Positions 25,323 to 56,051 of a DNA stretch of 64,000 bases are shown here, piece by piece; the first letter of the stretch is position 1; the number at the start of each line of letters is the position of its first letter. Source of the DNA: a virus. Position numbers and translations under genes: made by a program. The notes under the pieces were generated by a model. It was given only the letters and a program-made list of their open reading frames with translations, had not been told where the DNA came from and did no database searches. The stretch lies in IMG/VR virus record IMGVR_UViG_3300005436_000012, one strand, 5' to 3'.

Positions 25323-26761
25323 ATCGCCGAGAGTTTCTGGCGGCCACTGTCATGGCCGGGCAACTTCCCAAGCGTAAAATCCGGTACGCCATCGACCCTG
25401 ATACGGGCGACGAGCGCAAGCCCTTCGAATGGCAGACGGCCTTTCACCGTTCGCCGGCGCGCTTCAAGGGATTCTCCGGACCGGTCGGATCCGGCAAATC
25501 GCGCGCCTTGTGTTCGGAAGCTCTAAAACTGGCCTATTTGAATCGCGGCCGGACTGGCGTCATCGGCGCGCCGACGTATCCGATGCTGCGCGATTCGACG
25601 CGCGCGTCGTTTCTGGAAATCCTGGAAGAGAACCGGATTCCCTACCGGCTGCATAAGTCGGAAAACTCGATCTATCTGCCGGAAGCCAGATCAACGATCC
25701 TGTTCCGCGCTCTCGATTCCTTCGAACGGATCCGCGGCACGAATCTGAGTTGGTTTGGGGTAGACGAATTAACTTACTGCAAGCCCCAGTCCTGGCTCCG
25801 GCTCGAAGCCCGGCTGCGAGATCCCAAGGCCACGCATCTGTGCGGGTTCGGATCCTGGACGCCCAAAGGCTTCGATTGGGTTTATGACCGCTTCATCGGC
25901 CCCGATCGCAAGCCCGGCTATGAGGCTTTCCGCGCGCGGCAGAATCCGACGCTGGGAGATTATTACCAGCGCCTGCAGGAAAGCTACGATCCCAGGTTTT
26001 TCCAGCAGGAAGCCGAAGGCGAATATCTCAACGTCTTTTCGGGCCAGGTCTATTATCCGTTCAACCGCAAAGATCACTTGAGACAAATCGAATACTCGCC
26101 GGCGCATCCGATCTGGTGGGCGCTCGATTTCAACGTCAACCCCATGTGCTCGGTGATCGGGCAGACCTACGGCGGAATCATCCGGGTGTTGGACGAGCTG
26201 GTGCTCTCGAATTCGAATACGCTGGCCGCCTGCGAGGAATTCCTGGCGCGCACCGCACACATGCTCGCGGCCCGCAAAGTCCCGGAAGTTCCCGAAGACT
26301 GGCTCGAGCAGCAGGGTGTAGGCTATCCGCTCGATCCGCCGGCGCCCTTGAACGTGTACGTCTACGGCGATCCGGCCGGCACGCAGCGCAAAACCTCGAG
26401 TTCGAGAACCGACTGGCAGATCGTGCGCGAGTTTTTCGGCCGCTACACCGATAAGTTCAAGGTGCAACTGCGCGTTCCCGAAGCCCATCCGCTGGTCAAG
26501 GACCGCGTGAACTGCGTCAACGCCATGCTGCTGAACTATGCCGGCGAGAAGCGCATGTATCTGGATTCCAAATGCCGCGAGCTCGCCAAGGATTTCGAGC
26601 AGCTGGCATGGAAGGCGGATCCGAACGGAAACCCGCTGTCGGAACTCAATAAATCCGATCCGATGCGATCGCATCTCTCGGACGCCTTGGGTTACATGAT
26701 CGTCCGCGAATTCCCGATGAAACGCAAAGCCGGCGAGCGATCGGGCCCGCCGCTCGTCTGA
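25319..26761 (+). CDS. terminase large subunit
   Basis: Walker A GPVGSGKS, Walker B-like FGVDELTY, C-terminal nuclease motif VYGDPAGTQ; 480 aa. Confidence 0.85.
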   Translation: MNRREFLAATVMAGQLPKRKIRYAIDPDTGDERKPFEWQTAFHRSPARFKGFSGPVGSGKSRALCSEALKLAYLNRGRTGVIGAPTYPMLRDSTRASFLEILEENRIPYRLHKSENSIYLPEARSTILFRALDSFERIRGTNLSWFGVDELTYCKPQSWLRLEARLRDPKATHLCGFGSWTPKGFDWVYDRFIGPDRKPGYEAFRARQNPTLGDYYQRLQESYDPRFFQQEAEGEYLNVFSGQVYYPFNRKDHLRQIEYSPAHPIWWALDFNVNPMCSVIGQTYGGIIRVLDELVLSNSNTLAACEEFLARTAHMLAARKVPEVPEDWLEQQGVGYPLDPPAPLNVYVYGDPAGTQRKTSSSRTDWQIVREFFGRYTDKFKVQLRVPEAHPLVKDRVNCVNAMLLNYAGEKRMYLDSKCRELAKDFEQLAWKADPNGNPLSELNKSDPMRSHLSDALGYMIVREFPMKRKAGERSGPPLV

Positions 26762-26827
26762 CACTCAACCTCGATTCACTGGCGTGAACAGCGCCAAATC
26801 AAAAACTGAAAAGGAAACAACATCTAA

Positions 26828-27286
26828 ATGGCAGCCAATGGCCGCAAGTACGGTTTCTCCGGTTCCATCACCGGAGCCTCCACCAAGTCAATCGTGGGAA
26901 TCACCGCCACCACGGCGGTCCGTCCCTATGTGATGGATCTCATGATCTCCTCCAACGCGACCCCGGCCGACAATTCGTCGGAGTGGTGGGTGTTGCGTTT
27001 CACCGTCAGCGCCACGACCTGCACCGTGGTCACCCCCGCGTTGTTCGATTCGGGCGATCCGGCCGCGGCCTCGGTTGCGTGGAAGAACGCCACCGGCGAG
27101 CCGACCTACGGCGCCGTCCCGGTGCTCGACATCGCTCACAACCAACGCGCCACCTTCCGCTGGGTAGCAGCGCCGGGCGAGGAAATCATCGCGCCTGCGA
27201 CCGCCGCCAACGGCATCGGAGTCCAGTGCCAGGGCGTCGGCGGCTCGGGCGTCGTGGAACTTTGCAGCGTTGTGTTTGGGGAGTAG
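26828..27286 (+). CDS. hypothetical protein
   Basis: 152-aa ORF. Confidence 0.4.
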   Translation: MAANGRKYGFSGSITGASTKSIVGITATTAVRPYVMDLMISSNATPADNSSEWWVLRFTVSATTCTVVTPALFDSGDPAAASVAWKNATGEPTYGAVPVLDIAHNQRATFRWVAAPGEEIIAPATAANGIGVQCQGVGGSGVVELCSVVFGE

Positions 27287-27438
27287 TATTCCGGCGTTCG
27301 CGCTCTGAAGCATTTGTATTCTTCAGATCTCGCCTCGATATCTAAAGCATGGGCCATCCTATCCAGAATCCTCCTGGGAGCCTAGTCAGCTCGTCTTCGG
27401 GGTGGCCTGTCATTTCCAAACCCTGCCGCTATGGCGAG

Positions 27439-28185
27439 ATGAGTTTCTACGCCACCGATAAGTGGCTGGGGCGATCGCTCGATCTGTATGGCGAGTGGTC
27501 GGAAGGCGAAGCGGACCTGCTGCGCGCGGTGTTGAAGCCCGATGATTGTGTTGTCGAGGCTGGTTCGAATCTTGGAGCGTTGACGCTTCCGATGGCCGAG
27601 ATCGTGCGCGAAGGGGCCGGGAAAGTGTGGGCGTTTGAGCCGCAGCCGGAGATCTTCGACATGCTGCTGCGGAATCTGTCAGCCTATCCGCACAGCGTGC
27701 ATCCGAGCCGCCGCGTGTTAGGCAAAGCGAATGACGTCCGGATGCTTGCCCGCGTCGATTATTCGAAAGGCACCTGTAATCCGGGCGGCTTCGAGGCTCT
27801 CGAAGATTGCGAGACTGGAGTGCCCACGCCGGCAACTACAATCGATTCGCTCAATTTCGACCGACTGGATCTGATCAAGGCCGACGTCGAGGGCATGGAG
27901 CTGGATGTTCTCGCCGGCGCGCAGCGCACGATCCTCCACTATCGGCCCTTGCTCTACGTCGAAGATGACCGCGAAGAAAAACGGGCGGCGTTGCGAGCCT
28001 GGATCCTCGAGCAGGGCTACCGGATCTATTCGCACCAGCCGCTGCTCTACAACCCTGGCAATTTCAACGGCTATAAAGTCAATGTATTTCCGAACATCGT
28101 CTCCGCGATGCTGTTTTGTGTCCCGGTGGAACGGGGTCCGGAATTTCGGAACGTAACGAATCAGTTGGAAAGACTACGCGCGTGA
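27439..28185 (+). CDS. FkbM-family methyltransferase
   Basis: IDSLNFDRLDLIKADVEGMELDVLAGA is the hallmark FkbM motif; start at the internal Met MSFYATDKW. Confidence 0.6.
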   Translation: MSFYATDKWLGRSLDLYGEWSEGEADLLRAVLKPDDCVVEAGSNLGALTLPMAEIVREGAGKVWAFEPQPEIFDMLLRNLSAYPHSVHPSRRVLGKANDVRMLARVDYSKGTCNPGGFEALEDCETGVPTPATTIDSLNFDRLDLIKADVEGMELDVLAGAQRTILHYRPLLYVEDDREEKRAALRAWILEQGYRIYSHQPLLYNPGNFNGYKVNVFPNIVSAMLFCVPVERGPEFRNVTNQLERLRA

Positions 28186-28637
28186 ACGATCCCGCCAATC
28201 CCGTCATGTCGCAAGCGGTACCCGAGACGGCCGCGTCCTGGAATTTGAGTTCGATGCCGCGCTATGTCTGCCACAAGGAAGTGCGGGCGCTCAAGATCCT
28301 CGACATCCAGCACGATCGGAGGCCGCAATTCACGAAGGCGACCTGCAAAGGATGTTTCGCGCTGGGATCGGGCTGCGGGCATTGCGAGCGTTGTGCATGG
28401 GAACGCGACACGGGCGGAAGACTCGGAGCGACGATCGTCGCCGATGATGCCCCAGCCGAATATCCCAACGCCCGCACCCGATTTCGTGTGAGTGCCGAGT
28501 ACCTCGCGAAACACAAACCGACGTCCGGCGGTTACTACGTCGTCTACAAGGACGGCTACGAATCGTTTTCCCCGGCGCAGGCCTTCGAGGAAGGCTACAC
28601 GCTTCAGGTGGAGTACAAGCATTTCAATGATCGGTAA
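28182..28637 (+). CDS. hypothetical Cys-containing protein (GTG start overlapping upstream stop)
   Basis: ATCKGCFALGSGCGHCERCAW. Confidence 0.35.
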   Translation: MNDPANPVMSQAVPETAASWNLSSMPRYVCHKEVRALKILDIQHDRRPQFTKATCKGCFALGSGCGHCERCAWERDTGGRLGATIVADDAPAEYPNARTRFRVSAEYLAKHKPTSGGYYVVYKDGYESFSPAQAFEEGYTLQVEYKHFNDR

Positions 28638-28671
28638 AGCGTCGACGTATTGAATTAAATACATAAAGAAA

Positions 28672-29004
28672 ATGCCATACGCAGAAGATCTAAAACCGGA
28701 AGACGTGCAATGGTGCGACACCTGCAGAGACCAGCAGGCGGGTCACTGCGGGGGCTGCAATCGCGAATTCGACGCCAGCGACCGCATGATCTACAAGTCG
28801 CAATCCTGCCACTTCCATCCGGGAACGGTGCTGGGAATTCCGGGCTCGATGGGCATCTACAAGAAATTGTGCGTGGAATGCTATCGAATCGATTTCGCCA
28901 AGGTATATCCGAAGACGCCGGTCCCGAGTCTTCCCGATCGGGTGCCTATTCCACGCCCCACGGGCGCGACGGTGATAGCGCCGCTAGCCCTGCCCAAACT
29001 ATGA
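28672..29004 (+). CDS. Cys-rich hypothetical protein
   Basis: CDTCRD..HCGGCN...CHFH...CVECY. Confidence 0.35.
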   Translation: MPYAEDLKPEDVQWCDTCRDQQAGHCGGCNREFDASDRMIYKSQSCHFHPGTVLGIPGSMGIYKKLCVECYRIDFAKVYPKTPVPSLPDRVPIPRPTGATVIAPLALPKL

Positions 29005-30311
29005 CGCCTGCCGCTGAAAACCCGAACCGGCGGATCCTCGATCTTGTGATGGAACTGGCCTCCGGGGTCCGGCACCGCCAAGAAACGCTCGCGGCCGCGG
29101 TTCTCGAAACGGATCCCGGCAACATCAAAGCCCTCCAAATCCTGGGCCGAATCCGGGCCACTCAGGAGAAAGCGGATGTAGCGCGGCGATATTTCGAACG
29201 GGCCCGGGAATTCGTCGATTTGAGCGTATTGCTGACCCGCGAGCGGAAATACGAAGAGGCCTTCGTGGCCGCCGAGCGCGCGATCGAATCGGATCCCGTC
29301 CGCGCCCACGCGCAGCTGGCCGGCCTCTATTCCGAGATCGGGGGCGCGCAGAGATCCATGCAGCGGCATACCGATCTGGGCCTGGCTCTAGCCCCGGATC
29401 ATGCGCAGCTCCGGATGTACCGCGCGATTCTGGCGCTGGGGCGTGGAGACTTCCCGGCCGGCTGGGCGGACCTGAAGTATCGCGCCTGGCATCAGCAGCT
29501 CGCGCAGAGCTGCCCCTGCCCGGAATGGAAGGGCGAGCCGCTCGAAGACAAAACCTTGCTCGTCATCGGCGAGGAAGGCATGGGCGACCAGGTCATGTAC
29601 GCCCGCTTTCTTCCGGTGCTCTGGAAATTCCATCCGCAGCGGATTCTACTGCGGCCCGGCGACGCGCTGGCACGTTTGTTCCATGAATCTTTTCAAGGCA
29701 TCGAAATCGTGAACAGCCAGGGCGAGATGGAGGGGGCGGACGTCGATTACTGGATCGACACGGCCTCGCTCGGTGCGCTCGGGCTCGAGGATCGCGGAAC
29801 GGTCGGGATGGTCAGCCCGTATCTCCGGATAAACCCGGAATCCGGGCGACGCGCGGCGCGGCTGCTTGCCCTCCTGTCTCCTACAAGCGGCCGCCTGCGA
29901 GTTGGCCTGGTCTGGGCGGGACGGCCGGAACATCCGCAGGATCGCAACCGGTCACTCACGTTCCAAGATTTCGCGCCGCTGCTCGAGTTGGAAGGCGTGG
30001 ACTTCTACTCGATGCAATTTGGCACGGCGGCAGCCGAGAACGATCGCATCCCGGATCTCGCTGGGCATTGTCTCGACGCCTATGATTCAGCGGCCATGAT
30101 GGAGAATCTGGACCTGCTGATTTCGGTCGACACGCTGCCGGTCCATATTGCCGGCGCGCTTGGGAAACCAGTCTGGGTTCTGGTCCGGAATCCGATCGAC
30201 TGGCGCTGGGGCAATCCCGAAGAACGCAACGACTGGTATCCGACGGTGCGGCAGTTCCGGTATCAACCGATGGAGCAAGTGGCCGAAGCCCTGCGGGAGC
30301 TGACCAAATGA
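29001..30311 (+). CDS. TPR-repeat + glycosyltransferase family 9-like protein
   Basis: N-terminal TPR-like helices; LLVIGEEGMGDQVMYARFLP (GxGD) and LISVDTLPVHIAGALGKPVWVLV resemble GT9 heptosyltransferase motifs; start at the internal Met overlapping the upstream stop. Confidence 0.5.
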   Translation: MTPAAENPNRRILDLVMELASGVRHRQETLAAAVLETDPGNIKALQILGRIRATQEKADVARRYFERAREFVDLSVLLTRERKYEEAFVAAERAIESDPVRAHAQLAGLYSEIGGAQRSMQRHTDLGLALAPDHAQLRMYRAILALGRGDFPAGWADLKYRAWHQQLAQSCPCPEWKGEPLEDKTLLVIGEEGMGDQVMYARFLPVLWKFHPQRILLRPGDALARLFHESFQGIEIVNSQGEMEGADVDYWIDTASLGALGLEDRGTVGMVSPYLRINPESGRRAARLLALLSPTSGRLRVGLVWAGRPEHPQDRNRSLTFQDFAPLLELEGVDFYSMQFGTAAAENDRIPDLAGHCLDAYDSAAMMENLDLLISVDTLPVHIAGALGKPVWVLVRNPIDWRWGNPEERNDWYPTVRQFRYQPMEQVAEALRELTK

Positions 30312-30622
30312 GAGAACACGGCGCGATTATCGTCAACGGCATACAGACCGGGACGACTCAGAATTGTCCGCATTGTAATTCGCACTTTGTGGTTGCCTCC
30401 AATGGGACGCTAGCCGAAGCACGGCGCAGCGGACTGGGCGATCTGGCCAGGCCCCGCGTCTGGTGCCGAAAATGCGACCGGCTGACCTGCGGCCGACCAG
30501 GCTGTGATCCGGCGGTCGCCTGTATACCGTCCGAAGCGCGCCTAGAACACGTCGAAGGAAAAAAAACGCGCTACGACGATGACATTGACCGCCTGAAAGC
30601 GCGCGGCGCGCCGCTGCTCTAA
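30308..30622 (+). CDS. zinc-ribbon-like hypothetical protein
   Basis: CPHCNSH...CRKCDRLTCGRPGCD. Confidence 0.35.
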   Translation: MREHGAIIVNGIQTGTTQNCPHCNSHFVVASNGTLAEARRSGLGDLARPRVWCRKCDRLTCGRPGCDPAVACIPSEARLEHVEGKKTRYDDDIDRLKARGAPLL

Positions 30623-30665: not shown

Positions 30666-30923
30666 TTGAGAAGAGCTATCGTTCTGTTGCTGGCCATCTG
30701 CCTCTCGATCCGCGCGCAGGGCAACTCTCATTCCGTCACGCTGTCGTGGACCTGGTCGCAGGGGACCGGTGATCTCCAGGTCGTCGCCGGAGCCACGTAT
30801 TATTACGTGATCACGGCCTTCAATTCCGGGGGTGATTCACCGTACAGTAACCAAGTTACTGCGGTGATACCCTTTCAAGTCCCATCCTCCGCACCCGTAG
30901 GCTTGACAGCCACGGTCAAATAA
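30666..30923 (+). CDS. secreted fibronectin type III-like small protein
   Basis: Signal peptide MRRAIVLLLAICLSIRAQG; SVTLSWTWS...YYYVITAFNSGGDSPYS FN3-like. Confidence 0.45.
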   Translation: MRRAIVLLLAICLSIRAQGNSHSVTLSWTWSQGTGDLQVVAGATYYYVITAFNSGGDSPYSNQVTAVIPFQVPSSAPVGLTATVK

Positions 30924-30931
30924 AACGCTCC

Positions 30932-32173
30932 ATGCATCTCCGTGTCGTCATCGGCATTTGCGCCTGCGCGTTGGCCGTGTCTGCGCAGAATCCCAATACC
31001 GCGCGCTGGCCAGCCTTTAACGCGGGCGATCCCGATCTGTTCGTGGTCACCAACCGGGCGCAGACCAGTCTGACCGCGCCCATCGACAACGTCACTACCA
31101 CGTTTCCGGTGGCGAACATCTCTCTTTTTACTCCGCCCGTGATCGTGACCATCGAAACGGAAGTGATGCATTGTGCGGTCGCTGGCGGCGTGCTCCTGCA
31201 AGGCTGCGTGCGCGCCCAGGAAGGAACGGTGGCCGCGGCCCATCCCTCCGGCGCGTTAGTGTTCGGCTACTTCTCGGCCTGGCACTACAACCAGGTGGCG
31301 GCGGAGATCAAGGCCATCGAAGCCAACGCGACCAAACTGCCAGCCTTCAACAATCTGGGTACGCTATCGGGCACGCCCACGTTCCCGGTGACCGCACAAA
31401 TTCAGACGTTCAAAATCACGCTCAACGGCGCCGTCACTTCCTCGACGCTGGGTACCCCGATCTCGAACGGTCTGGTTTATTTCGACGTCTGTCAGAACGG
31501 CACGGGCGGATTCACGTTCGCCTGGCCGGCGGGATTTTCACTGGCGCAGATCGTCTCGCCGTCTCCCAATACCTGCAGCGTGCAGGGTTTTCAGTGGGAC
31601 GGCGCCGCGGCGATTCCTCTTTCCCCGGGAACCGCTACTGGCTCGACTTTCCCCGACGTGAAATACATGCCGGCGGCCGATTGCGTCAACGGGATGGCCG
31701 GTTCGGGTTGGTCGACGGGTCTCACCCCCGCCGCTCTTTGCCGAGCGGGCACGAACAATAAAGAGGCCTTGTTGAGCCCCTGGGGCGCGAGCGACACCGC
31801 GCAGCTTTCGATGCATTTGTCCAAAGATTGGAATTCCACGATCAACCCCTCGGTGAGCCTGGATGTGACCTCCACCGATGCGACGAACGGCCACACCATC
31901 ATCATGCAGCTGGCGACGGCTTGCGATAAGGGCGATGGATCGACCACCGACGACGTCGCGTTCAATTCGCCGCAATCGTTTTCGACCATCACGCTGAACG
32001 GAAACGCCAACCGCACCTGGACTGCGACCTTAAACAACATCACCATGACGGGTTGCGCCGCGCCGGGGGTCTTGCGCCTTCAGCTCAGCCGTACAGCCGA
32101 TACGGCCACGAATGTCGGAGTGATCGGACTCGCGATTACAGTCCCCAGAACGCTCATGCTACAGGCCAATTAA
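30932..32173 (+). CDS. secreted protein, AQNPNTARWP N-module family member 1
   Basis: Signal peptide; about 130-aa N-module shared with the 44259 ORF and the 43232 fragment; motif CAVAGGVLLQGCVRAQEGTVAAAHPSGALV. Confidence 0.5.
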   Translation: MHLRVVIGICACALAVSAQNPNTARWPAFNAGDPDLFVVTNRAQTSLTAPIDNVTTTFPVANISLFTPPVIVTIETEVMHCAVAGGVLLQGCVRAQEGTVAAAHPSGALVFGYFSAWHYNQVAAEIKAIEANATKLPAFNNLGTLSGTPTFPVTAQIQTFKITLNGAVTSSTLGTPISNGLVYFDVCQNGTGGFTFAWPAGFSLAQIVSPSPNTCSVQGFQWDGAAAIPLSPGTATGSTFPDVKYMPAADCVNGMAGSGWSTGLTPAALCRAGTNNKEALLSPWGASDTAQLSMHLSKDWNSTINPSVSLDVTSTDATNGHTIIMQLATACDKGDGSTTDDVAFNSPQSFSTITLNGNANRTWTATLNNITMTGCAAPGVLRLQLSRTADTATNVGVIGLAITVPRTLMLQAN

Positions 32174-32382
32174 ATGCCCGAAAATCAATCGGCTCAATTG
32201 GACACGAGTGAACTCGGAACCTTCCTGCTGGGCGCCACCGGAGTATCGGCCTCGAGCGCACCTGCAGGCGTTCCATTCGTCGCCGAATGTCAGCCCGTGA
32301 TTATTCAGAAACTCTACAGCTTCGTCGCTTGACGCTTGACGCTTCTTCACCGCTAAACACTTCCAACGCCGCGAATACTTTG

Positions 32383-46564: not shown

Positions 46565-46566
46565 AA

Positions 46567-49500
46567 ATGAGGTGGCTTATATTTGTTGTTCTCGCCTGTT
46601 CGTGCGGGCTCTTTGGGCAGATCACCGTCACCAGTGATCCGGGCGCGGGGTGGGGTTGCTCCAGCTTGACCTGCTCTACATCCGAGATTCAGCACGCATC
46701 GCAGACCTATCCAATTCATTACGCCATCGCCGGAACGGGGACCATCTCGGTCGGTACGATCACTGGGACAGGATCGAGCGGGTTTACCTTTCGGGTACTG
46801 AGTGTGGGCTGTGACCCATGCGAGTCCCCGATCTCTTCTGTTACAGCGGCGAGCCCGCCCACTTACACCTATACGGACAGCAACATCAATTCGCACATAG
46901 CGAATGGTCAGGCTGTGACGATTGAAAACGTTGCGACCTGCACCGGAGCGAACGGGCAAGGTGTCGTGGCTAACCTGAATACCGGAGCCAAGACATTTCA
47001 GATCACCGGATTCTCGGTGAGTGGAGCTTGTTCGGGGGGGAACGTCTGGGTCACCACAAACACAGCCCCAGCCGATGGGTTCGGATACTACAACGGCTAC
47101 GCCGATTATGACTATTCCTTCGGCGCGCATTCAGCGGATATCCCAATCACCGGAGGCAGTGGAGGAAGCTTTCACGCTATCGTAAATCTCACAATCCTGG
47201 CTTTGGCTGCGCCGACCATTACTACACCATCAGGAAGTACGGCGGGATGCTCCAGTTCCGATGCAGTATTTTTTATCGATCTCGATGCTTGCGCGCCTTC
47301 CAACATGCGACCGTCTGGAACCTATTCCTTTGCGGCGGTTGGCAGCGCAGCATTACCCGACTCCAATTTTGGCGGCGTCGTATACACCGTAGCCCAGAAC
47401 GTTCCGCCCAACGTGATCGCCGTTTCTCCAAGCGATACCGTGGTCACAAACGTCAACTCAGACGGCTCGTTAATGGTAGTCGGTACAAACACAGGAAATC
47501 TGGACTATACTTCCACCACACCGCCTTTCACTGTTGGCTGGCACAATCCCACCGGGATAGTATCAGGTTCATCTCAAAAGTGGAGCGGTCTGAATCCTAA
47601 GGTTGTGTTTTACTACTCTGGTGTAACTCTGCACAGAGCCACTTTTGGAACAGCACCAGCGATCACTTCCGATGTCATAATCTGGACCGATGGCGATGCA
47701 GGAGCGGTTTTAGGTGACGGTGGTGACAGCGAGGCCACAAAAGATGACTGGTTTGCTCAAGTGGATGGCGTCAACAAGAAGCTCTGGTTTATAAACGGCA
47801 ACTGCAACACTACGAACTGCGCAACAGTGGCAAGCATCAGCTTTGCCGGGTTGTCTCCATTCATTTTCCGCACCGTCATTACAACACCAGGCGTAGATGT
47901 GGTAAGCGGATTACGTTATATCACGCTTTACAACAACAGTGGCGCGCATGAACTCTACACGTTCAACGGGACAACGCTGACTGACGTGGGACCTTATCCT
48001 ACCCTTCCGGGGCTTGGCAGTCTTTTCGGTTACCTCACAGGTAAGGGTTCCTGCACCGCCGTGCAGAATGCAGCCGGTTTATGTATCGGCGCTGCTACCG
48101 ATCACACGGCTGGCGGGGAAATAGCCGGTCAGCAGGCGTGGTGCGGAGCGACCCTGGGGAGATATCAACCAGGCCGTTCTTGGTTCACCTGTTCTCTATT
48201 CAACAAAGGTTTGAACCAGATGTTCATCGACCAAGCCAACGGTGGTGGCATGATTCAGGTGTTTCCGGTCAATACAGAAACATCGGATACTCACACAGGA
48301 GCAGCACGTCAGGGACAGGTGTTTTCTCTATCGTCAGACGGAGCGCCGCTCACTACATCGTGGGCCGTCACCAACGCAGTCACGAACGGCAGCAATATCG
48401 ACCTAACCGTCCGCACCACCGACCACGGACACACAGGCGGGGATCTGTCGGTCACGCTGAGCGGAACGATTACTAACGTTGCTACCACATTCACGCTGTC
48501 GGCCACCTGCGACGTGGACGGACACTGCTTTTCAGCGCCGGCATCATTGCAGCTCGATGCGGAAATACTCACTTGCACTACTTTGGTTAGCACCGTATAT
48601 TCTGGATGCACTCGTGCGCAGCAAGGTACCTCTGCCGCCGCTCATACAACAGGAGCCGTCGTCTATCAGCAGAACAATCCCCTAACGCTGGTCAGCACAA
48701 ACAGTGTCACCATTTCCAACGTAGGTGGCTGCACGAATGCCAACGGGAACCGGACGGTAACCGTCGTTGGCGTGACTGTCACGTTGCCGGGCGTCACCTG
48801 CAATGCCGGTTACACAGCCAACACAGGAGTCGCTTATCTCAACCTGGCCCCGACGACCGTCCAGCATGAATCGGAACTTGATGTGATCTACATGCCTTCC
48901 ACGGTTACATCAGCCGCGATTGTAAAACGATTTGCGATGAGCCGGAGTTTTGCTTTCCAGGACACTTACTTACAAAACGCTCCCAATCCGTATTACGATC
49001 AGCCCCATGCAGCGATATCGCAGGACGGCTCGAAGCTTATGTGGGAGGGAAACAACGGTCTGGCGGACACGGTTTCGGTCTACTACGCCAACACTGGCTT
49101 CGGCACTCCGACCTTTTCCATTTCCAAAACACATGCCGGCAATTTTACCCAAGGCCAGCAGAATGCCCCGTATACGATCACAATCACCAATTCGGGCGGC
49201 GTGGCAACCAACGGCAGCCTGGTAACGGCCACCGACACCGTTCCCGCCGGCGAATCTCTGGTTTCGATGAGCGGAGCGGGTTGGACCTGCGTATCGAATT
49301 CCTGCACTCGCTCCGATGTTTTGAATCCAGCCTCGGCTTATCCCGCGATCACCGTATTGGTCAATGTAGCCTCAAACGCCTCTTCGCCGCAGCTCGAACT
49401 CGCTTCGGTTTCAGGCGGGGGGTCGGCATCGGCGAACGCGTCCGATTCCACGACTATCATTCCGACGTCCGGCCCGATTCTCGGGATCGCCAAGAGTCAT

Positions 49501-49884
49501 TTGGGCAATTTTGCGCAGGGGCAGCAAAATGCCGTGTCCAGCATCGTGGTATCGAACACCGGCGGCTCGGCGACCGACGGAACGGTGGTGACGGTGACGG
49601 AGACGATCCCGACCGGCGAAACTTTAGCGTCCCTGAGCGGAACAGGCTGGACGTGCGCTTCGAATTCCTGCACGCGCTCGGATGCCCTGGTCGCTTCTGC
49701 GAGCTATCCGGTTATTACGGTGCGCGTCAATGTCGCAATCAACGCGACGTCGCCGCAGACCAATCAATGTTCGGTATCGGGCGGCGGTTCGGCTTCCGCC
49801 AACGCCTCCGATTCTCAGATCATCATTCCCCTGCTCACTTATCCCAGCTCGATTTTACGCGTGAGCCGGGAAATCCTGCGTTAG
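46567..49884 (+). CDS. secreted 1105-aa protein with C-terminal DUF11-like tandem repeats
   Basis: Signal peptide MRWLIFVVLACSCGLFGQ; two about 120-aa repeats (...ITNSGGVATNGSLVTATDTVPAGESLVSMSGAGWTC...); internal CTTLVSTVYSGCTRAQQGTSAAAHTTGAVVY motif. Confidence 0.5.
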   Translation: MRWLIFVVLACSCGLFGQITVTSDPGAGWGCSSLTCSTSEIQHASQTYPIHYAIAGTGTISVGTITGTGSSGFTFRVLSVGCDPCESPISSVTAASPPTYTYTDSNINSHIANGQAVTIENVATCTGANGQGVVANLNTGAKTFQITGFSVSGACSGGNVWVTTNTAPADGFGYYNGYADYDYSFGAHSADIPITGGSGGSFHAIVNLTILALAAPTITTPSGSTAGCSSSDAVFFIDLDACAPSNMRPSGTYSFAAVGSAALPDSNFGGVVYTVAQNVPPNVIAVSPSDTVVTNVNSDGSLMVVGTNTGNLDYTSTTPPFTVGWHNPTGIVSGSSQKWSGLNPKVVFYYSGVTLHRATFGTAPAITSDVIIWTDGDAGAVLGDGGDSEATKDDWFAQVDGVNKKLWFINGNCNTTNCATVASISFAGLSPFIFRTVITTPGVDVVSGLRYITLYNNSGAHELYTFNGTTLTDVGPYPTLPGLGSLFGYLTGKGSCTAVQNAAGLCIGAATDHTAGGEIAGQQAWCGATLGRYQPGRSWFTCSLFNKGLNQMFIDQANGGGMIQVFPVNTETSDTHTGAARQGQVFSLSSDGAPLTTSWAVTNAVTNGSNIDLTVRTTDHGHTGGDLSVTLSGTITNVATTFTLSATCDVDGHCFSAPASLQLDAEILTCTTLVSTVYSGCTRAQQGTSAAAHTTGAVVYQQNNPLTLVSTNSVTISNVGGCTNANGNRTVTVVGVTVTLPGVTCNAGYTANTGVAYLNLAPTTVQHESELDVIYMPSTVTSAAIVKRFAMSRSFAFQDTYLQNAPNPYYDQPHAAISQDGSKLMWEGNNGLADTVSVYYANTGFGTPTFSISKTHAGNFTQGQQNAPYTITITNSGGVATNGSLVTATDTVPAGESLVSMSGAGWTCVSNSCTRSDVLNPASAYPAITVLVNVASNASSPQLELASVSGGGSASANASDSTTIIPTSGPILGIAKSHLGNFAQGQQNAVSSIVVSNTGGSATDGTVVTVTETIPTGETLASLSGTGWTCASNSCTRSDALVASASYPVITVRVNVAINATSPQTNQCSVSGGGSASANASDSQIIIPLLTYPSSILRVSREILR

Positions 49885-49916: not shown

Positions 49917-51131
49917 ATGGCGGCATCAGCTATGGCAACCCCTTCAATTCATCGCCCCACACGGCTTCCGCCAGCGAGTGGGGGCGCGCCCATGATGCGT
50001 CTCTCGATTTCCTTAGATCCCACCAAAACCGGACGTGAAGCCGAAGCGCTGGAGACAACCTTAAACCGGATGATCGTGGGGCAGGCCGAAGCCGTTCAGG
50101 CCATTCTCTCGATCTATCAAACCCATGTGGCCGGACTCGCCCCGCCCTTGCGTCCCATCGGGAACTTCCTGTTTCTCGGGCCCACCGGATCCGGCAAGAC
50201 CCGCATCGTGGAGGCGACCGCCGAGGCGCTGCTGTTCAACCCGCGGGCGCTGATCAAAATCGATTGCGCCGAATTCCAGCACAGCCACGAGATCGCGAAA
50301 CTGATCGGCTCACCGCCCGGATACCTGGGACACCGGGAAACTCATGCGCTGCTGAGCCAGGAAGTCTTGAACCAGCACCACACGGCAACGGTAAAGATCA
50401 GTATCGTGCTGTTCGACGAAATTGAAAAAGCCTCGGACGCGCTGTGGAATTTATTGCTCGGGATTCTCGATAAAGGCACGCTGACGCTCGGAGACAACCG
50501 CCGGGTCGATTTCTCGCAGGCCTTGATCTTCATGACCTCCAACCTCGGCGCGAGCGAGATGAACGCTCTCCTGCATCCGAGCTTCGGGTTCCACGGCGCG
50601 CCGGCGGAGGTGGAAGCCAAGAAGATCTCCAAGATCGGCCTGGCGGCGTCCCGGCGGAAATTCACGCCCGAGTTCGTCAACCGCCTGGACCGGATCGTGA
50701 CCTTCAAGCCGCTCGGCGCCGAGCAGCTCGACAAAATCCTGGACATCGAATTGAACCTGGTCCAGCAGCGCATTTTTAACGGAGGCGGGCGCGCCTTCGT
50801 CTTTAAAATGAGCCTGGAGGCCAGAGTCCTGCTGCTCGAGCAAGGCACGGATCTCAAATACGGCGCCCGGCATTTGAAACGCGCCATCGAACGCCTGCTG
50901 GTCCAGCCGCTCTCGAACCTGCTGGCCTCCAATCAATTGCGCGGAGGCGACAGCGTGCAGGTCGACCGCCAGGCCGGGGTTTTGAGCTTTATCAAAGACG
51001 GCGAAGGCCTCGCGGCCGGCGCCATGGCCGACCTGGTCGATCGCTCGATTTCAGCGCCGTCCCCGGTCTTCACGGGCGCGATCGAAAGCCGGACCACCGA
51101 ACTACGCGCCCGCTCCTCGAGGCGCGGATAG
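49917..51131 (+). CDS. stand-alone Clp/Hsp100 D2-type (AAA_2) ATPase
   Basis: VGQAEAVQAI...GNFLFLGPTGSGKTRIVEA...IKIDCAEFQHSHEIAKLIGSPPGYLGH is the ClpA/B D2 signature; Walker B VLFDEIEKA; sensor GARHLKRAIE. Confidence 0.7.
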   Translation: MAASAMATPSIHRPTRLPPASGGAPMMRLSISLDPTKTGREAEALETTLNRMIVGQAEAVQAILSIYQTHVAGLAPPLRPIGNFLFLGPTGSGKTRIVEATAEALLFNPRALIKIDCAEFQHSHEIAKLIGSPPGYLGHRETHALLSQEVLNQHHTATVKISIVLFDEIEKASDALWNLLLGILDKGTLTLGDNRRVDFSQALIFMTSNLGASEMNALLHPSFGFHGAPAEVEAKKISKIGLAASRRKFTPEFVNRLDRIVTFKPLGAEQLDKILDIELNLVQQRIFNGGGRAFVFKMSLEARVLLLEQGTDLKYGARHLKRAIERLLVQPLSNLLASNQLRGGDSVQVDRQAGVLSFIKDGEGLAAGAMADLVDRSISAPSPVFTGAIESRTTELRARSSRRG

Positions 51132-51159: not shown

Positions 51160-51354
51160 ATGGTGATCTACTTATCGCTAGCCGTCGCTTTAATCGGCTT
51201 GCTGCTGTTTCTGCTGGCGGATCGGCCGGCGGTTCCAGGCGGGCCCACGCCCGGGTATCCGAATGCCAAGCGGATCGGCGAAATCATGATGCTCGCCGGC
51301 GGCCTGGCGTTTCTGCTGGTATACGTCCCGCATGCTCTGATCGGCCGCACATAA
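51160..51354 (+). CDS. small two-TM membrane protein (holin-like)
   Basis: MVIYLSLAVALIGLLLFLLA...IMMLAGGLAFLLVYVP. Confidence 0.35.
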   Translation: MVIYLSLAVALIGLLLFLLADRPAVPGGPTPGYPNAKRIGEIMMLAGGLAFLLVYVPHALIGRT

Positions 51355-51355
51355 A

Positions 51356-51844
51356 ATGAACGGCTTAGCCCAAGGCCTCATCATCGCGGCCTTCACCATC
51401 GTCGTAGGCGCCATCATCGCTTTTCTGAAATCCATGAGTGATCGGCTTCAGAAGCTGGAGATAGAATTCGCCAAGCTGGACACGCAGGTCAGTCCTCTCT
51501 GGGCCAAGGTGCAGGCGCAGATAGCGGCCGATCTGCATCACCCCGAAGACCGCTACCGGGAAATGGATCGCCTGCTGGAGAAGCTCGAGGCCATGAGCAT
51601 CAGCAACCCGGAACGCGATCGCCTGAAGGATCTCCTCTTAGAACGATCGCTCGATATGCATGCTGACATCAGCGACGATCAGCGGGCGAAAGCCAAACTC
51701 ATGATTGGCGTGATGGACATGGTATTGACGGAGGCCAGTAATAACAGCAACAGCCCGCCGCCGTTGATATTGGCGAAAACTCCCGTGGCGGAGGGCGGCA
51801 CCATCACCATCATCCTGGAGCCCACCGCACCCGCACCCAAATAG
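51356..51844 (+). CDS. N-terminal TM + coiled-coil protein
   Basis: LIIAAFTIVVGAIIAF TM, then charged helical region. Confidence 0.35.
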   Translation: MNGLAQGLIIAAFTIVVGAIIAFLKSMSDRLQKLEIEFAKLDTQVSPLWAKVQAQIAADLHHPEDRYREMDRLLEKLEAMSISNPERDRLKDLLLERSLDMHADISDDQRAKAKLMIGVMDMVLTEASNNSNSPPPLILAKTPVAEGGTITIILEPTAPAPK

Positions 51845-52108: not shown

Positions 52109-52114
52109 AACCCA

Positions 52115-52714
52115 GTGAAACTTTACCCTTTGGGCGCGGTCACGCCGCGCTTCACAACCATCTCGAGCTCTACCAACGCGACGCCCATCGTCATTACCAC
52201 CAGTGCGCCGCATGGACTCCTCGTGACGGACGTGATCACCATCGTGAACCACTCGACCAATACGGCCGCCAACGGCACGTATCAAAACGGGGTGACTTTT
52301 CAGACCGGCTTTTCGCTCACGCCGACCACCATCACGCTGACCGGCAGAGCCGGCAACGGCGTGGGTGGAGCCACGGGATCCGCCTCGGCGCCGCAGCAGC
52401 TCATCAGCGCTTCCTCCTTCCCCGTCATACCGGGGGTGACCGACAACAGCAAATTATTGGTGGCGCGCATTCTGGTCACGGCCGTCCCCAAAGTGATTCT
52501 GCCCACCGGCACGGTGTATGTCGGAACGGCGGGACTCAATCAGGGCAGTTTCACAAACCTGTTTCGCGGGATCAATCCTCCGCCGGCCGCCGGAATCTAC
52601 GATTACTACGATGTCGAGATCGACGGCACCAACGTCATCCCCATCGCCGATTATTGGGTCGATAATTCCGCGCCCGCCACCGACGGCGCGCTAGTGGCTT
52701 TCTGGATCCGCTGA
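52115..52714 (+). CDS. paralog family A member 1 (about 200 aa, likely virion protein)
   Basis: PIVITTSAPHGLLVTDVITIVNHSTNTAANGTY N-motif and ALVAFWIR C-terminus shared with 52714, 53292 and 59586 ORFs. Confidence 0.45.
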   Translation: MKLYPLGAVTPRFTTISSSTNATPIVITTSAPHGLLVTDVITIVNHSTNTAANGTYQNGVTFQTGFSLTPTTITLTGRAGNGVGGATGSASAPQQLISASSFPVIPGVTDNSKLLVARILVTAVPKVILPTGTVYVGTAGLNQGSFTNLFRGINPPPAAGIYDYYDVEIDGTNVIPIADYWVDNSAPATDGALVAFWIR

Positions 52715-53304
52715 TGAAATGCTATCCGCTAGGCCCCTGCTCGCCGCGCTTCTTCGGCATCGGGAGCTCCACCGTCGGGCCGCCGGCGGTCATCACCACC
52801 GGCGTGGCGCACGGATTCAGCCTCGCGGACGTGATCACCATCAGCGGCCACGCGACCAACACGGCCGTCAACGGCAGCTATTCGAATCTGGTCACCAATC
52901 AGTTCACGCTGACGCCCACCACGATTACATTGCTGGGTCTGACCGGAACAGCGCCAGGCTCGAATACAGGCTTCGCGAGCGCGCCGGCGCAGCTAATTAC
53001 CGTCATTAATTTTCCGGTCATCCCGGGGGTCTCCGATAACAGCAAGCTCATGGTCGCCAAGATCAACTTCACGGCGGTGCCGTTCGGAACCGCGGTATTG
53101 TTCCTGGGAGGCAAGGGACTCAACCAGGGGAATTTCACGAACGTGTTTCGCGGCCTGAATCCGCCCGCCGCGGCCGGCGTGGGCGTGTATGACTTTTACG
53201 ATATCGACGGCGATGGGGGAAACGTAATTCCGATCGCCGAATACTGGGTTGATGCGAGACTGCCGGGGACCGAGGCGGTGCTCGCCAGTTTTTGGATGAG
53301 GTAA
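52714..53304 (+). CDS. paralog family A member 2
   Basis: PAVITTGVAHGFSLADVITISGHATNTAVNGSY ... VLASFWMR. Confidence 0.45.
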   Translation: MKCYPLGPCSPRFFGIGSSTVGPPAVITTGVAHGFSLADVITISGHATNTAVNGSYSNLVTNQFTLTPTTITLLGLTGTAPGSNTGFASAPAQLITVINFPVIPGVSDNSKLMVAKINFTAVPFGTAVLFLGGKGLNQGNFTNVFRGLNPPAAAGVGVYDFYDIDGDGGNVIPIAEYWVDARLPGTEAVLASFWMR

Positions 53305-53900
53305 ATTTTCAAATGCCCTACGCGCCTTTTCCGATTCAAGCTTACAATCCTTTCGGCCTGGGACACATCGTGGGGACGACTCAGAACTTGGGCGCGATCG
53401 TCAACACCAATAACGTAACGCCCATCGTGATCACCATCACCGCCCACGGCTATTCCACCGGGAACCGGGTGCGGATCGCCAGCGTCACCGGACAAACCGC
53501 CCTCAACGCCGATTGGACCATCGGGGTCATCGACGCGAACACGATCACGATCCCCCTGGCCGGCAACGGAAGCGTTTCCGGGTCCGGAACGATTTCGAGG
53601 ATCTGCCTGCCGATCACCTTCAATCTTCCGGCGTTGTCGGGCCAGAATTACGCGGTGAACAGCATTACGTTTGAAGCCTTCGCGTCGAACGTGGGGAATA
53701 TCTACGTGGGCAACGCCGCGACGATGTTGAACGTAACGCCCTTCACCGATTGCGTTTACATCATGAAGCCGGGAACGACGCAGAACATGCCGTTTTTCTC
53801 GCCCGGCAATTCCAACATCATCTCCATCGATCCCTGGGGAATCGACTGGGACGCAGCTCACCTGGGCGACGGCGTGCTGGTCTCGGTGTTCGTCCGCTAA
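53292..53900 (+). CDS. paralog family A member 3 (divergent)
   Basis: PIVITITAHGYSTGNRVRIASVTGQTALNADW ... VLVSVFVR. Confidence 0.4.
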   Translation: MDEVNFQMPYAPFPIQAYNPFGLGHIVGTTQNLGAIVNTNNVTPIVITITAHGYSTGNRVRIASVTGQTALNADWTIGVIDANTITIPLAGNGSVSGSGTISRICLPITFNLPALSGQNYAVNSITFEAFASNVGNIYVGNAATMLNVTPFTDCVYIMKPGTTQNMPFFSPGNSNIISIDPWGIDWDAAHLGDGVLVSVFVR

Positions 53901-54277
53901 TCGACCATCTCGAAGCAGCGCGTAGTGCCGTTGAAGCGCACCAGTACGTGATTTTTGTCCAAAATGTCGCCCAGGACAAGATCGCGGGCATTTCTCTTTA
54001 TGTTCACCGGGCCCAATGCGTCGATTGAGAGCGAAGAGGAGCCGGAGTTGGGATGCGTGGCCTTGAAGGCAAACAGCGCGCCGTCTTTGTAGGCCGTGAG
54101 CGCCGGAGCGAAAGCGCTCAAACAGATGAAGGAATTTCCACTGCCGGAATCGGGGGCCAACTCGATCGGCTTGTCGTCCGCGACGCCGGTCGTCGCTTTT
54201 GTCGCAGCCGGAGCCGGTGGCAGGGGAAGCGTGGCCTGTTTGGCCGCCACGAGAGCTTCTTTGTGCACCAGGGCCAT
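53897..54277 (-). CDS. minus-strand ORF homologous to the N-domain of the 45605 protein
   Basis: YKDGALFAFKATHPNSGSSSLSIDALGPVNIKR aligns with AYRDGVVYSFRATHSNAAASTLAIDGLAAVLIKK; start uncertain. Confidence 0.3.
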   Translation of the reverse strand: MALVHKEALVAAKQATLPLPPAPAATKATTGVADDKPIELAPDSGSGNSFICLSAFAPALTAYKDGALFAFKATHPNSGSSSLSIDALGPVNIKRNARDLVLGDILDKNHVLVRFNGTTRCFEMVD

Positions 54278-54335
54278 ATCAGCCACGCTGCCCGAGGCCG
54301 CCTGAGAAATATGGTCCAGGCAGAAGACAACCGAG

Positions 54336-56051
54336 TTGTGTACCGCGTCGATGAGCTTCTCGGATGCGGTTTTCTCCAGGACACCAGCTGTTTTTTCCAT
54401 GACACCAGCATACCCCAACACCGCCGCTTCCACGAAGGCAGCCGCAAAACCGGCTTCGAAGGCGAAGGTGACCCTGCTCGATGCCAAGCACAGCCATTGG
54501 TCAAAATATCACGATTTCTGGGAAATCTACGATCTGCTCTATCGCGGCGGGGAAGAGATCCAGCGCGAAGCCGCGCGCTTCCTGATCAAGCGGCCCAAGG
54601 AAGTTCCCGAAGTCTTCGCCACGCGCCTGTCGATGTTCGATTACCAGAACATTCTGGGCGTCGCGCTCGGCTGGTATCAGTCCAAGCTTTTCAGTAAAGA
54701 CCCGACCATCGAAGTGCGACTCAAAGGGAATTCGGATCCGGCCGCAGTGCCCGAAAACCGCAGAAAGCCGTACACCGATTTTCTGCAGAACGCGGACCGC
54801 AACGGCACCACGTACGTCGATCTGTGGCGGCAGATTTATCAGAATTTGCTGGTCTTCAAAGGCTGCTATGCCTGCATCGATCTACCGTCGGGAACGAGGA
54901 GCGCGCCGAACCGCGCAGCCCAGCGCGCCCAGGGCGGACTCGATCCCTACGTGATGTTGTACGATCCGCGCGCGGTCATCAACTGGGCGGTCGACGGCCT
55001 CGGAAAACTCGAATGGATCGTCATCAAGATCCAGACCTTCCACCAGGATTTTCTAGGCGACGGAGTCAGGACCGATCGCTGGACCTATTACGACCGCCGG
55101 CGATATCGCGTCTACGAGCGCTCGACAACGACCTATAAAGAAGCCTCCTCGACCGGGCCGATCGCCTTGTACAGCCCCGCCGGACAGCCGATCGACGCTG
55201 GCTCCGAGCAAACCGCCGAGCTGGTCGACGAAGGGGCGCACGCCCTCGCGGACAGCGAGCAGGTGCCGGTGCGTTACTTCACGATTCCCGACGGGCTGTG
55301 GCTGGCCTCGCGCGCCTATCTGCCGGCCAAGGCCCACCTGAACATCGAAAACAGCTACCAGTGGGCGCTCTTCATGGCGAATCTGCCGGTGCCGGTCATC
55401 ACCTCCGACACCGAAATACAGCACACGATTTCAGAGACCGCCTTTATCCAGCTCGACAAGGGCGGGAAATTCGAATGGTCCGAGCCCAAGGGAACCAGCT
55501 TCGAACATTCGCACAATTGCCTGGAAGCCAAGCGCGAGGAGATTTTCCGCAGCGTGTATCTCATGGCCCAGGGGCGAAGCTCGTCGGCCTCGGCCTCGTC
55601 CTCTTCCGGCTACGCCAAGGAAATGGACATGCTGCCGTCCAAAGACGTGCTGTCGGCCTACGGGGATATTGTGCGGGCCGGCTCGCAGAATCTGCTGTCG
55701 GATGTCGCGATGGCGCGCGGATTGAACGAGAAGGACCTCGAATTCGACGTGCGCGGCTTCAATTTCGAAATCAACCCCGCGCTGCAGGAAGCCGAGACGG
55801 CCGAAATCATGATCTCGCTCGACATCCCGTCGGACACGTTGACCAAAGAGATGCAAAAGCGCGTTGCGCATTCCTATCTGACCGATGCCAACCGCCAGAT
55901 CATCCAGCAGGTCGATGACGAAATCGATGCGGCGCCGACGCGCGACGAACTCGCCGCGCAGCAGCAGCAGCAAGTGAAACTCAGCATGGATCGCCAGTTG
56001 GGACGGTCGGTCCAGGCGGTCGGGCAATCGGCCGCACAGGCTGAGCCATAA
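54336..56051 (+). CDS. portal-like protein (by position and size)
   Basis: 571-aa ORF directly upstream of the scaffold-like and coat-like genes; acidic, Gln-rich C-terminus; no diagnostic motif; true start may be downstream of 54336. Confidence 0.35.
   Translation: MCTASMSFSDAVFSRTPAVFSMTPAYPNTAASTKAAAKPASKAKVTLLDAKHSHWSKYHDFWEIYDLLYRGGEEIQREAARFLIKRPKEVPEVFATRLSMFDYQNILGVALGWYQSKLFSKDPTIEVRLKGNSDPAAVPENRRKPYTDFLQNADRNGTTYVDLWRQIYQNLLVFKGCYACIDLPSGTRSAPNRAAQRAQGGLDPYVMLYDPRAVINWAVDGLGKLEWIVIKIQTFHQDFLGDGVRTDRWTYYDRRRYRVYERSTTTYKEASSTGPIALYSPAGQPIDAGSEQTAELVDEGAHALADSEQVPVRYFTIPDGLWLASRAYLPAKAHLNIENSYQWALFMANLPVPVITSDTEIQHTISETAFIQLDKGGKFEWSEPKGTSFEHSHNCLEAKREEIFRSVYLMAQGRSSSASASSSSGYAKEMDMLPSKDVLSAYGDIVRAGSQNLLSDVAMARGLNEKDLEFDVRGFNFEINPALQEAETAEIMISLDIPSDTLTKEMQKRVAHSYLTDANRQIIQQVDDEIDAAPTRDELAAQQQQQVKLSMDRQLGRSVQAVGQSAAQAEP

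Follow-up and report, generated by a model that had tools for sequence, protein, structure and literature searches.

The viral DNA stretch analysed here (64,000 nucleotides; IMG/VR record IMGVR_UViG_3300005436_000012), hereafter the window, corresponds to nucleotides 3-64002 of a metagenomic contig of 72 kb (ENA ERZ27264997 k141_5073274; also Logan SRR5456985). Between its genes for the large terminase subunit (TerL) and the portal lies a block of genes that is best explained as the host-recognition apparatus of a podovirus-type soil phage. Eight same-strand genes of this block, and two more located after the coat gene, begin with leaders of the signal peptidase I type, and several of them encode modules that are shared with virion proteins of other phages. 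Tail fibres, GP4-type adaptor domains and type-I signal peptides are known parts; leaders on the fibres of a tailed phage are apparently new. An initial annotation of the window had remarked that tail fibres normally carry no Sec signals, and this remark stands. We lean towards a model in which the fibres would be exported through Sec, would form disulfides in the periplasm and would be attached at lysis to particles assembled in the cytoplasm.

Predicted signal peptides in the terminase-portal block

Leaders were called with a crude rule-based scan for n-, h- and c-regions, combined with direct reading of the N-termini and with conservation in homologues. All eight block genes exhibit a short, positively charged n-region, an uncharged h-region of 7-15 residues and small residues at -3/-1, and Gln is found at +1 of the predicted cleavage site in 10/10 window leaders. 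With the predicted cleavage site marked by a slash, the eight plus-strand genes are g85 (30666-30923, 85 amino acids (aa); MRRAIVLLLAICLSIRA/QGNS, cut at IRA/QGNS), F413 (30932-32173; CALAVSA/QNPNTARWP), F692 (32383-34458; MKLLFALSTIIGCAFA/QQQEV, cut at CAFA/QQQEV), F815 (34455-36902; MIRKVVLFLLVAGLPGFA/QSKD, cut at PGFA/QSKD), a 5' remnant of a fibre gene (43232-44164; LFATLAIA/QNPNTARWP), F453 (44259-45620; AWSGVLCA/QNPNSARWP), F315 (45617-46564; MIKNLCAFLLFASLAFS/QTKY, cut at LAFS/QTKY) and F1105 (46567-49884; MRWLIFVVLACSCGLFG/QITV, cut at GLFG/QITV). The two genes after the coat gene encode 251-aa paralogues (60784-62322, +; leaders at 60784 and 61567, LLNA/Q) that are 63% identical to each other, contain 2.7-3.2% Cys and have atypically long h-regions. 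Identity of this pair with the Bbp16 cement protein was considered and rejected (E = 0.008, below the cutoff).

The leader-bearing genes abut or overlap leaderless neighbours and G1456, the gene of a 1456-aa repeat protein, in one strand-run: the start of F815 overlaps the stop of F692 (ATGA), and F315 overlaps the stop of F453. Signal peptides had initially been assigned across this region, including the 1456-aa protein. This holds for the eight genes above and not for G1456, g163 and g342, in which the same scan found no N-terminal leader.

Leader-bearing proteins are rich in cysteine. In their mature forms 2.35% of the residues are Cys (97/4126), versus 0.80% in the other proteins examined and 0.59% in structural-region proteins that have no leader (p = 1e-10). 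Mature F413, F692, F453, F315 and F1105 contain 8, 14, 12, 6 and 25 Cys, respectively, and F815 contains 19.

Virion-type modules of the leader-bearing proteins

Two unrelated N-terminal modules recur in these proteins. The type-1 module (~110 aa) is common to the tail-fibre-like proteins F413 and F453 and to the remnant, and is found internally in F1105 (residues 631-703). The type-2 module is common to the tailspike-like F692 (28-110) and to F315 (37-128). Residues 41-114 of F453 match PHROGs 11439 (tail fiber), 2885 (baseplate wedge) and 4406 (virion structural). F413 and F453 share 49% identity over 217 aa; the N-module of F413 can be aligned with P0002-P0009, and F413 gives a weak match to phrog_11439, 'tail fiber'. 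F1105 is related to F453 by BLASTP (1e-11), matches phrog_7578, ends in two C-terminal repeats of ~120 aa and has no Pfam or PDB match. In cultured phages (INPHARED, distant matches only) the type-1 core domain occurs in proteins annotated as tail tube B, baseplate wedge or structural protein.

The AlphaFold2 (AF2) model of the F453 type-1 module (predicted local distance difference test, pLDDT, 83-95) matches 41 viral proteins of BFVD (E <= 1e-3), in many cases to within ~1 Å across 70-80 residues. Among solved virion chains, it superposes on 8rk3_b (JBD30 baseplate; root-mean-square deviation, rmsd, 2.0 Å), 9in6_M and 9n71_A (VP1, Mystique). The type-2 module has homologues in leaderless fibres that are poor in Cys and bear a Peptidase_S74 chaperone domain, and the AF2 model of the F692 N-domain (pLDDT 74-88) resembles chain 9b45_2 of the Pseudomonas phage Pa193 baseplate/tail fibre (33% identity, rmsd 2.6 Å). 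The comparison of the N-module proteins with tail structures that the initial annotation had suggested gives matches for the N-domains, to 8rk3_b and 9b45_2. As these domains are only ~80 aa long, Foldseek assigns them weak E-values against the PDB (0.01-0.1). The fold comparison covers the N-domains; outside them the models of F453 and F692 are too poor for the beta-helix and the C-terminal domains to be compared with tailspikes. PDB sequence searches with F692, F815, F1105, F453, F315, g329, the TPR protein of the block and the N-module profile returned nothing or chance matches (nitroreductase, designed TPRs).

The domain names first proposed for these proteins turned out to be weakly supported or undetected. 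The FN3 domain comes down to a sub-threshold Pfam fn3 match of an FN3-like piece in g85 (E = 0.0057), the glycosyl-hydrolase matches behind a glycosidase-like F815 are insignificant (E = 0.03-0.07) and F815 has no relative in the PDB. A DUF11 domain was not detected in F1105 (Pfam at E <= 1, NCBIfam). The beta-helix corresponds to a beta-helix-like repeat region in F692 with a weak NosD match (E = 0.0019).

Across homologues the N-module is conserved and the C-termini are variable, which is the classic architecture of receptor-binding proteins. Judged from sequence, the leader-bearing genes of the block are tail-fibre genes of a podovirus-type phage with a P22-type coat.

Co-variation of leader, glutamine and cysteine pair

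An exhaustive HMMER search with the mature type-1 module, the leader being left out of the query, yielded homologues in 2602 representative clusters (E <= 1e-3). The counts below refer to the best 157 of these 2602 homologues. A variable hydrophobic leader that ends exactly before QNPNTA is carried by 105 homologues (~115 with borderline cases), while 36 leaderless homologues start with M-[APGS]-NPNTA. As the leaders end at the motif with which the leaderless forms start, the predicted cleavage site corresponds to the natural N-terminus of the leaderless forms.

Cysteines follow the same division. A Cys pair (C-x8-14-C; C82/C93 in F453) is present in 97/105 leader forms versus 2/36 leaderless forms; by strict alignment columns the counts are 70/113 and 1/36 (Fisher p = 4e-11). 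Gln at +1 is found in 80/113 leader forms and in none of the 36 leaderless ones. The type-2 module behaves alike, independently: F692 and F315 contain C-PDTGSANAIV-C (C-x10-11-C), and the leaderless Peptidase_S74 fibres have no Cys there. A rough neighbour-joining (NJ) tree distributes the leaderless forms over 11 clades, 9/11 of which are without the Cys pair, so that the correlation between leader and cysteines probably reflects more than one event. As far as sequences can tell, the combination of a leader, Gln at +1 and disulfide-capable cysteines is a signature of maturation in an oxidising extracytoplasmic compartment.

Fibre slots in related contigs and probable host

Scans with the N-module, using a 5-sequence alignment for the genome collection, identified four contigs of metagenome-assembled genomes (MAGs), three of them from Acidobacteriota (Solibacteraceae, Acidobacteriales), and 27 IMG/VR viral contigs; homologue lookups added further contigs. 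The host is probably a member of the Acidobacteriota, as three of the four MAG contigs, the only ones with taxon labels, point to that phylum.

The homologues sit in tail modules. In siphovirus contigs (L006, L012, L024, L028) leader-bearing homologues follow a tape-measure protein (TMP) of 1271-1734 aa and a distal-tail (Dit-like) protein of ~700 aa, and in podovirus contigs (L008-L011, L020) they are found among portal, scaffold, coat and SU10-type adaptor genes. In the same relatives the neighbouring distal-tail proteins that were examined have leaders, and the portal, coat, adaptor and tape-measure proteins have none. Leaderless homologues (M-P/A-NPNTA) occupy the fibre slot of T7-like contigs with a GC content of 0.31-0.47, whereas the leader-type contigs have a GC content of 0.50-0.65 and the window one of ~0.60. 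In the window itself, G1456 is the only neighbour of the fibre genes with an assignment.

Phage type and the distance between terminase and portal

The terminase and head genes of the window are on the plus strand and encode the small terminase subunit TerS (24729-25322; phrog_6299, 4e-13), TerL (25319-26761; Terminase_6N, 35 bits at a cutoff of 22; phrog_2, 8e-45), the portal (54468-56051 according to the gene caller, 527 aa, the longest open reading frame (ORF) starting at 54336; phrog_145, 6e-39; weak DUF4055), a scaffold-like protein (57106-57873, by position only) and a P22-type major capsid protein (58024-58923; P22_CoatProtein, 48 bits at a cutoff of 24; phrog_283, 1e-37). Of the portal-scaffold-coat order read by the initial annotation, the portal and the coat are thus backed by profiles and the scaffold by its position. 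Searching IMG/VR with back-translated patterns of the portal revealed no relatives, and the INPHARED matches of the portal, from cyanophages and environmental phages, reach 24% identity at best.

With a P22-type coat, a phrog_145 portal, a GP4-type adaptor domain and no long-tail families, the element is predicted to be a short-tailed (podovirus-type) tailed phage, the long-tail part of this assignment being an absence of family matches and hence negative evidence only. Searches of Pfam, PHROGs and NCBIfam gave no match of a window protein to families of tape-measure, sheath, tube or baseplate proteins, in agreement with what had been noticed at the outset. Since a podovirus is expected to have no tape-measure, sheath or tube, their absence is not the anomaly it had been taken for. 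Nor is the block devoid of recognisable tail genes, as had been proposed: profile searches reveal in it a GP4 fibre-tail adaptor domain as well as PHROG domains of tail fibres, and the block consists of fibre genes and is not a substitute for them.

The long distance between terminase and portal, given as about 27 kb, is real and amounts to 27.6 kb between TerL and the portal, both of which are profile-supported. Its reading as an anomaly is weakened by the closest relative, L013, which is 70% identical in g152, 51% in g104, 41% in the methyltransferase, 39% in the TPR protein, 37% in TerL and 32% in G1456. In L013 the methyltransferase/repeat-protein block is located upstream of TerL, and TerL lies ~2.6 kb from a portal-like gene; the gap is therefore a rearrangement of modules and not a trait of the lineage. 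L013 also encodes an 856-aa protein (1651-4221) that matches the major-vault-protein domains Vault_3 and MVP_shoulder.

G1456, a repeat protein with a fibre-tail adaptor domain

G1456 (38466-42836, +; 1456 aa) lies among the leader-bearing genes. It consists of ~35 tandem repeats of 35-38 aa with the motif DKWhPEIqRPrFD..RrQYLYP, which matches no Pfam family, and of a C-terminal GP4-type fibre-tail adaptor domain. Residues 1371-1438 match Pfam PF23148 Gp77 with 70.1 bits (cutoff 27) and PDB chain 8jou_D at 2e-6. The Cys content is 0.27%. In phage GP4, 15 copies of a 93-aa Ig-like protein form a collar that surrounds the head-to-tail adaptor and holds the fibres, of which there are three sets (PMC11445570). 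The GP4 protein stands alone, while the domain makes up the C-terminal 6% of G1456; because it is fused to ~1370 aa of repeats, we count G1456 as a carrier of the domain and not as a Gp77 ortholog.

Five metagenomic clusters of 950-1200 aa (P0159-P0163) are homologous to G1456, some with an N-terminal hydrophobic segment and some ending in the Gp77 domain; INPHARED gave no match. In contig L014 the G1456 homologue is followed by leader-bearing giants of 2323 aa and 1730 aa. The exact 1456-aa sequence was not among the returns of the homologue search from the protein collection, and ~165 nt of indels separate the window from the ENA assembly of the same contig, 63 nt of them in 63322-63901. Together these two observations suggest assembly or population variation, possibly in the repeats.

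A proposed route of fibre maturation and its alternatives

In the route that we propose, F413, F692, F815, F453, F315, F1105 and probably the 251-aa pair would be made as pre-proteins with type-I signal peptides and exported via Sec, and cleavage by signal peptidase I would leave an N-terminal Gln. By analogy with the Bacteroidetes Q-rule, this Gln may then be cyclised. The exported fibres and spikes would fold and form disulfides in the oxidising periplasm; the portal, the P22-type coat and G1456, which contributes a GP4-type collar/adaptor domain, would be put together as heads and tail cores in the cytoplasm. The mature N-terminus, which would be the one that leaderless relatives expose after removal of Met, would dock on the particle once lysis opens the inner membrane, or afterwards in the lysate. 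A wider picture, which we put forward as tentative and hold less firmly than the route itself, is that of a large group of uncultured soil phages, siphoviruses as well as podoviruses and probably infecting Acidobacteriota, that build their virions in two compartments: the core would be cytoplasmic, and the whole receptor-binding apparatus would be exported, capped by Gln and disulfide-bonded, would join the core at lysis and may be pre-organised on a membrane-proximal G1456.

Several points weigh against this proposal. To our knowledge, the addition of exported proteins to a cytoplasmic particle has no precedent among tailed phages, and fibres that attach only after lysis might do so inefficiently. 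Adaptor and nozzle were not recognised, as no SU10_adaptor, P22 gp4/gp10 or T7 gp11/gp12 match was found in the window or in the 8 kb downstream of it, and for this reason the docking partner of the fibres is unassigned. The Ala-rich hydrophobic segment of G1456 (residues 81-99) is ambiguous and not N-terminal: it contains LTAC and has a Kyte-Doolittle value of 1.86, such a segment is present in the homologues P0159 and P0162 but absent from P0160 and P0161, and an equally high value is reached by the coat protein. A reading of G1456 as a lipoprotein or a signal-anchored protein was therefore set aside. The leader calls come from a crude rule scan and from conservation in homologues. The AF2 models are confident for the N-domains only (mean pLDDT 48 for F453 and 42.5 for F692), the NJ tree behind the multiple transitions is weak (~100 columns) and the host assignment relies on three of four MAG contigs.

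The initial annotation had left two possibilities, a non-canonical route for assembling fibre-like appendages and cargo directed to the host envelope. We favour the former over the latter because the proteins carry virion-type N-modules, share an operon with an adaptor-domain protein and have homologues at tail-fibre slots. Envelope-directed cargo can be understood in two ways. The exported proteins could be non-virion depolymerases or adhesins that strip or mask the exopolysaccharide or receptors of the infected cell itself, for release, for a block of re-adsorption or for superinfection exclusion, with the true receptor binders being other, leaderless proteins such as p199, p196, p202, g163, g342 or G1456. 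Leaders and Cys enrichment argue for export in this case as well, F692 has a beta-helical look and F815 a faint similarity to glycosidases, and several leaderless proteins with no assigned function are left as alternative fibre candidates; moreover, Q-rule signal proteins of Porphyromonas phages were read by their authors as envelope modifiers (PMC10367356). We nevertheless regard this explanation as unlikely, since the N-modules are the same domains that stand at the extreme N-terminus of leaderless podovirus fibres and in solved virions, the leader proteins of the siphovirus relatives directly follow TMP/Dit-like genes in the loci examined, and a conserved N-module with variable C-termini is typical of receptor-binding proteins. 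The block could, on the other hand, be lysogenic-conversion cargo, i.e. a surface-remodelling island expressed from the prophage that alters the host envelope independently of virions. Its large size, the adjoining methyltransferase and TPR genes that could modify polysaccharide, the GC dips to 0.545 at F692 and F1105, suggestive of acquired cassettes, and the truncated remnant gene would fit such an island. It has, however, its strand and tight spacing in common with terminase, G1456 and portal, and a scan for promoter- or terminator-like sites stayed at or near background with no excess around it, although it was uninformative as to operon boundaries. A moron would be an autonomous unit apart from the late operon and free of virion domains, whereas the proteins of the block carry virion-type domains and their homologues lie inside the structural modules of many viral contigs. 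We consider this cargo improbable.

About as improbable, in our view, is that the hydrophobic N-termini are not Sec signals at all and the fibres assemble in the cytoplasm, the N-termini serving as uncleaved tethers on the cytoplasmic face, as propeptides for a phage protease or as assembly helices. The rule scan is open to this objection, as the N-terminus of the coat protein also scores as hydrophobic in it, and signal-peptide predictors are known to give positive calls for phage capsid proteins that lose their N-termini to the prohead protease (PMC10367356). Yet the leaders are variable in sequence and still canonical in their n/h/c organisation, with small residues at -1/-3, and the occurrence of Gln at +1 goes with that of the leader. 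In both N-modules, which are unrelated, the leader also co-varies with Cys pairs and with a 3-fold enrichment in Cys, for which a cytoplasmic location would offer no explanation.

Relation to known systems and implications

Filamentous phages provide a known case of virion proteins with signal peptides: pIII and pVIII of the Inoviridae undergo maturation in the envelope and become part of the particle afterwards. The phage described here differs in being a tailed double-stranded DNA phage with terminase, portal and an HK97/P22-type coat, of which only the fibres would take the envelope route. Tailed phages do send some late proteins through Sec, such as the SAR (signal-arrest-release) endolysins and the T4 antiholin RI with its cleavable signal (PMC8385771); these are small regulators or enzymes, unlike the structural fibre proteins of 300-1100 aa considered here.

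The exposed Gln in 10/10 window leaders and in 80/113 homologues resembles the Q-rule described for signal peptidase I substrates of Bacteroidetes (PMC5837995), and the use of this host secretion grammar by phages has been noted before, in Porphyromonas gingivalis phages that encode Q-rule signal proteins of unassigned function (PMC10367356). In contrast to those cases, the likely host belongs to the Acidobacteriota, which lie outside the Q-rule study, and the proteins are identifiable tail fibres; the pyroglutamate is putative only. Podophage fibres (T7 gp17 type; the GP4/DEV collar, PDB 8JOU, PF23148) are similar with respect to the P22-type coat, the lack of any TMP, sheath or tube found, the Gp77-type domain and the N-module with variable C-termini, and leaderless homologues of the module take the fibre slot of T7-like contigs. 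The fibres of the window differ from those of T7/GP4-type podophages in their cleavable-looking Sec leaders, in Gln at +1 and in extra Cys pairs, and the adaptor and nozzle are unrecognised. In a literature search that did not cover all journals, no report was found of Sec leaders on tailed-phage fibres, of periplasmic fibre maturation or of Acidobacteriota phage virions.

Tailed-phage virions are generally described as being assembled entirely in the cytoplasm. A widespread fibre family (hundreds of clusters at 50% identity) in which leaders co-vary with Cys and Gln suggests that the parts that recognise the host, at least, take another route. The wider two-compartment picture, if true, would give tailed phages an assembly pathway that had so far gone unrecognised. 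If the proposed route is true, it raises the concrete, testable question of when and where fibres are attached. Such fibres would need oxidative periplasmic expression in order to fold, which bears on recombinant receptor-binding proteins and on phage engineering. Presence of the leader together with the Q-rule would serve as a host-phylum signal for uncultured soil viruses, and genes like these would be wrongly labelled by annotation pipelines in which a signal peptide counts against a structural function.

Other genes of the block

All window genes of this section are on the plus strand. TerL is followed by an accessory block (26828-30622) that encodes five proteins, none with a signal peptide: g152; an FkbM-family methyltransferase (27349-28185; Methyltransf_21, 1e-15); g173; a TPR protein of 533 aa (28710-30311); and the Cys-rich g104. 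It is wholly conserved in L013, and the methyltransferase is also present in L011. The glycosylation module that had been placed here retains one solid member, the FkbM methyltransferase; the TPR and glycosyltransferase family 9 (GT9) matches of the TPR protein are sub-threshold.

Between F815 and G1456 lie g163 (36909-37400) and g342 (37423-38451), neither of which has a signal peptide or a match in Pfam, PHROG or NCBIfam; by position only, they are candidate tail or adaptor proteins. Searches of Pfam (E <= 1) and NCBIfam also returned nothing for g152, g329, g158 and p199.

In the type-1 remnant gene (43232-44164) the leader and ~38 mature codons (43232 to ~43350) are conserved. A tblastn comparison with the 157 homologues matches only 43232 to ~43385, and the rest of the ORF has no homologue. 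The conserved part is followed by ~900 bp with no detectable coding homology (remnant region 43232-44258). The remnant looks like the scar of a cassette exchange at the conserved N-module. GC content drops to ~0.545 over 32000-34000 (F692) and 46000-48000 (5' part of F1105), as against ~0.60 elsewhere, which is consistent with receptor-binding cassettes acquired from elsewhere.

Downstream of F1105 the Clp-type ATPase of the initial annotation proved solid. It is a ClpB/ClpV-type AAA+ ATPase of 404 aa (49917-51131; AAA_2, 4e-36; ClpB_D2-small, 1.5e-14; phrog_4871, 2e-80) and could be a fibre-linked chaperone. Contig L018 encodes a homologue of 30% identity (14158-15129), just downstream of leader-bearing fibres as in the window. 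The next two genes, g64 and g162 (51160-51844), have hydrophobic N-termini (Kyte-Doolittle 19-residue maxima of 2.8 and 2.4) and no significant family match, and are possible holin-like or membrane proteins. They are followed by three paralogues of ~200 aa, p199, p196 and p202 (52115-53900), with no signal peptide, 0-2 Cys and a weak E1_FCCH-like match; p199 and p196 are 59% identical, p196 and p202 25% (pairwise E = 0.002). Four such paralogues had been counted, and pairwise comparison found three.

Remaining features of the window and contig

The contig was also considered as a circular genome, which was rejected as its ends have no terminal overlap. The minus strand upstream of the terminases encodes Ku, an ATP-dependent ligase, DnaJ, DUF2201 and ParB proteins. 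Ku (15859-16698) and the ATP-dependent DNA ligase (17320-18369), both on the minus strand, form a non-homologous end joining pair in a phage. Two ParB-like genes are located at 7143-7772 (+) and 12261-13898 (-), and a sigma factor of the extracytoplasmic function (ECF) type at 6004-6558. A Band_7/SPFH protein (3825-4625) has the lipoprotein signal LAMAG/C, and a Band_7 gene is also found near the methyltransferase genes of L011. About 1.9 kb past the window end (L002 11874-12272), on the opposite strand and among small phage genes, lies a SET-domain (lysine methyltransferase-like) gene. Tat-like (twin-arginine) motifs occur at the N-termini of TerL (MNRREFLAATVMAG; 25319-25360), where the motif is probably due to chance, and of a 106-aa protein (MTRRELFATLGLGIAQ; 63339-63390).

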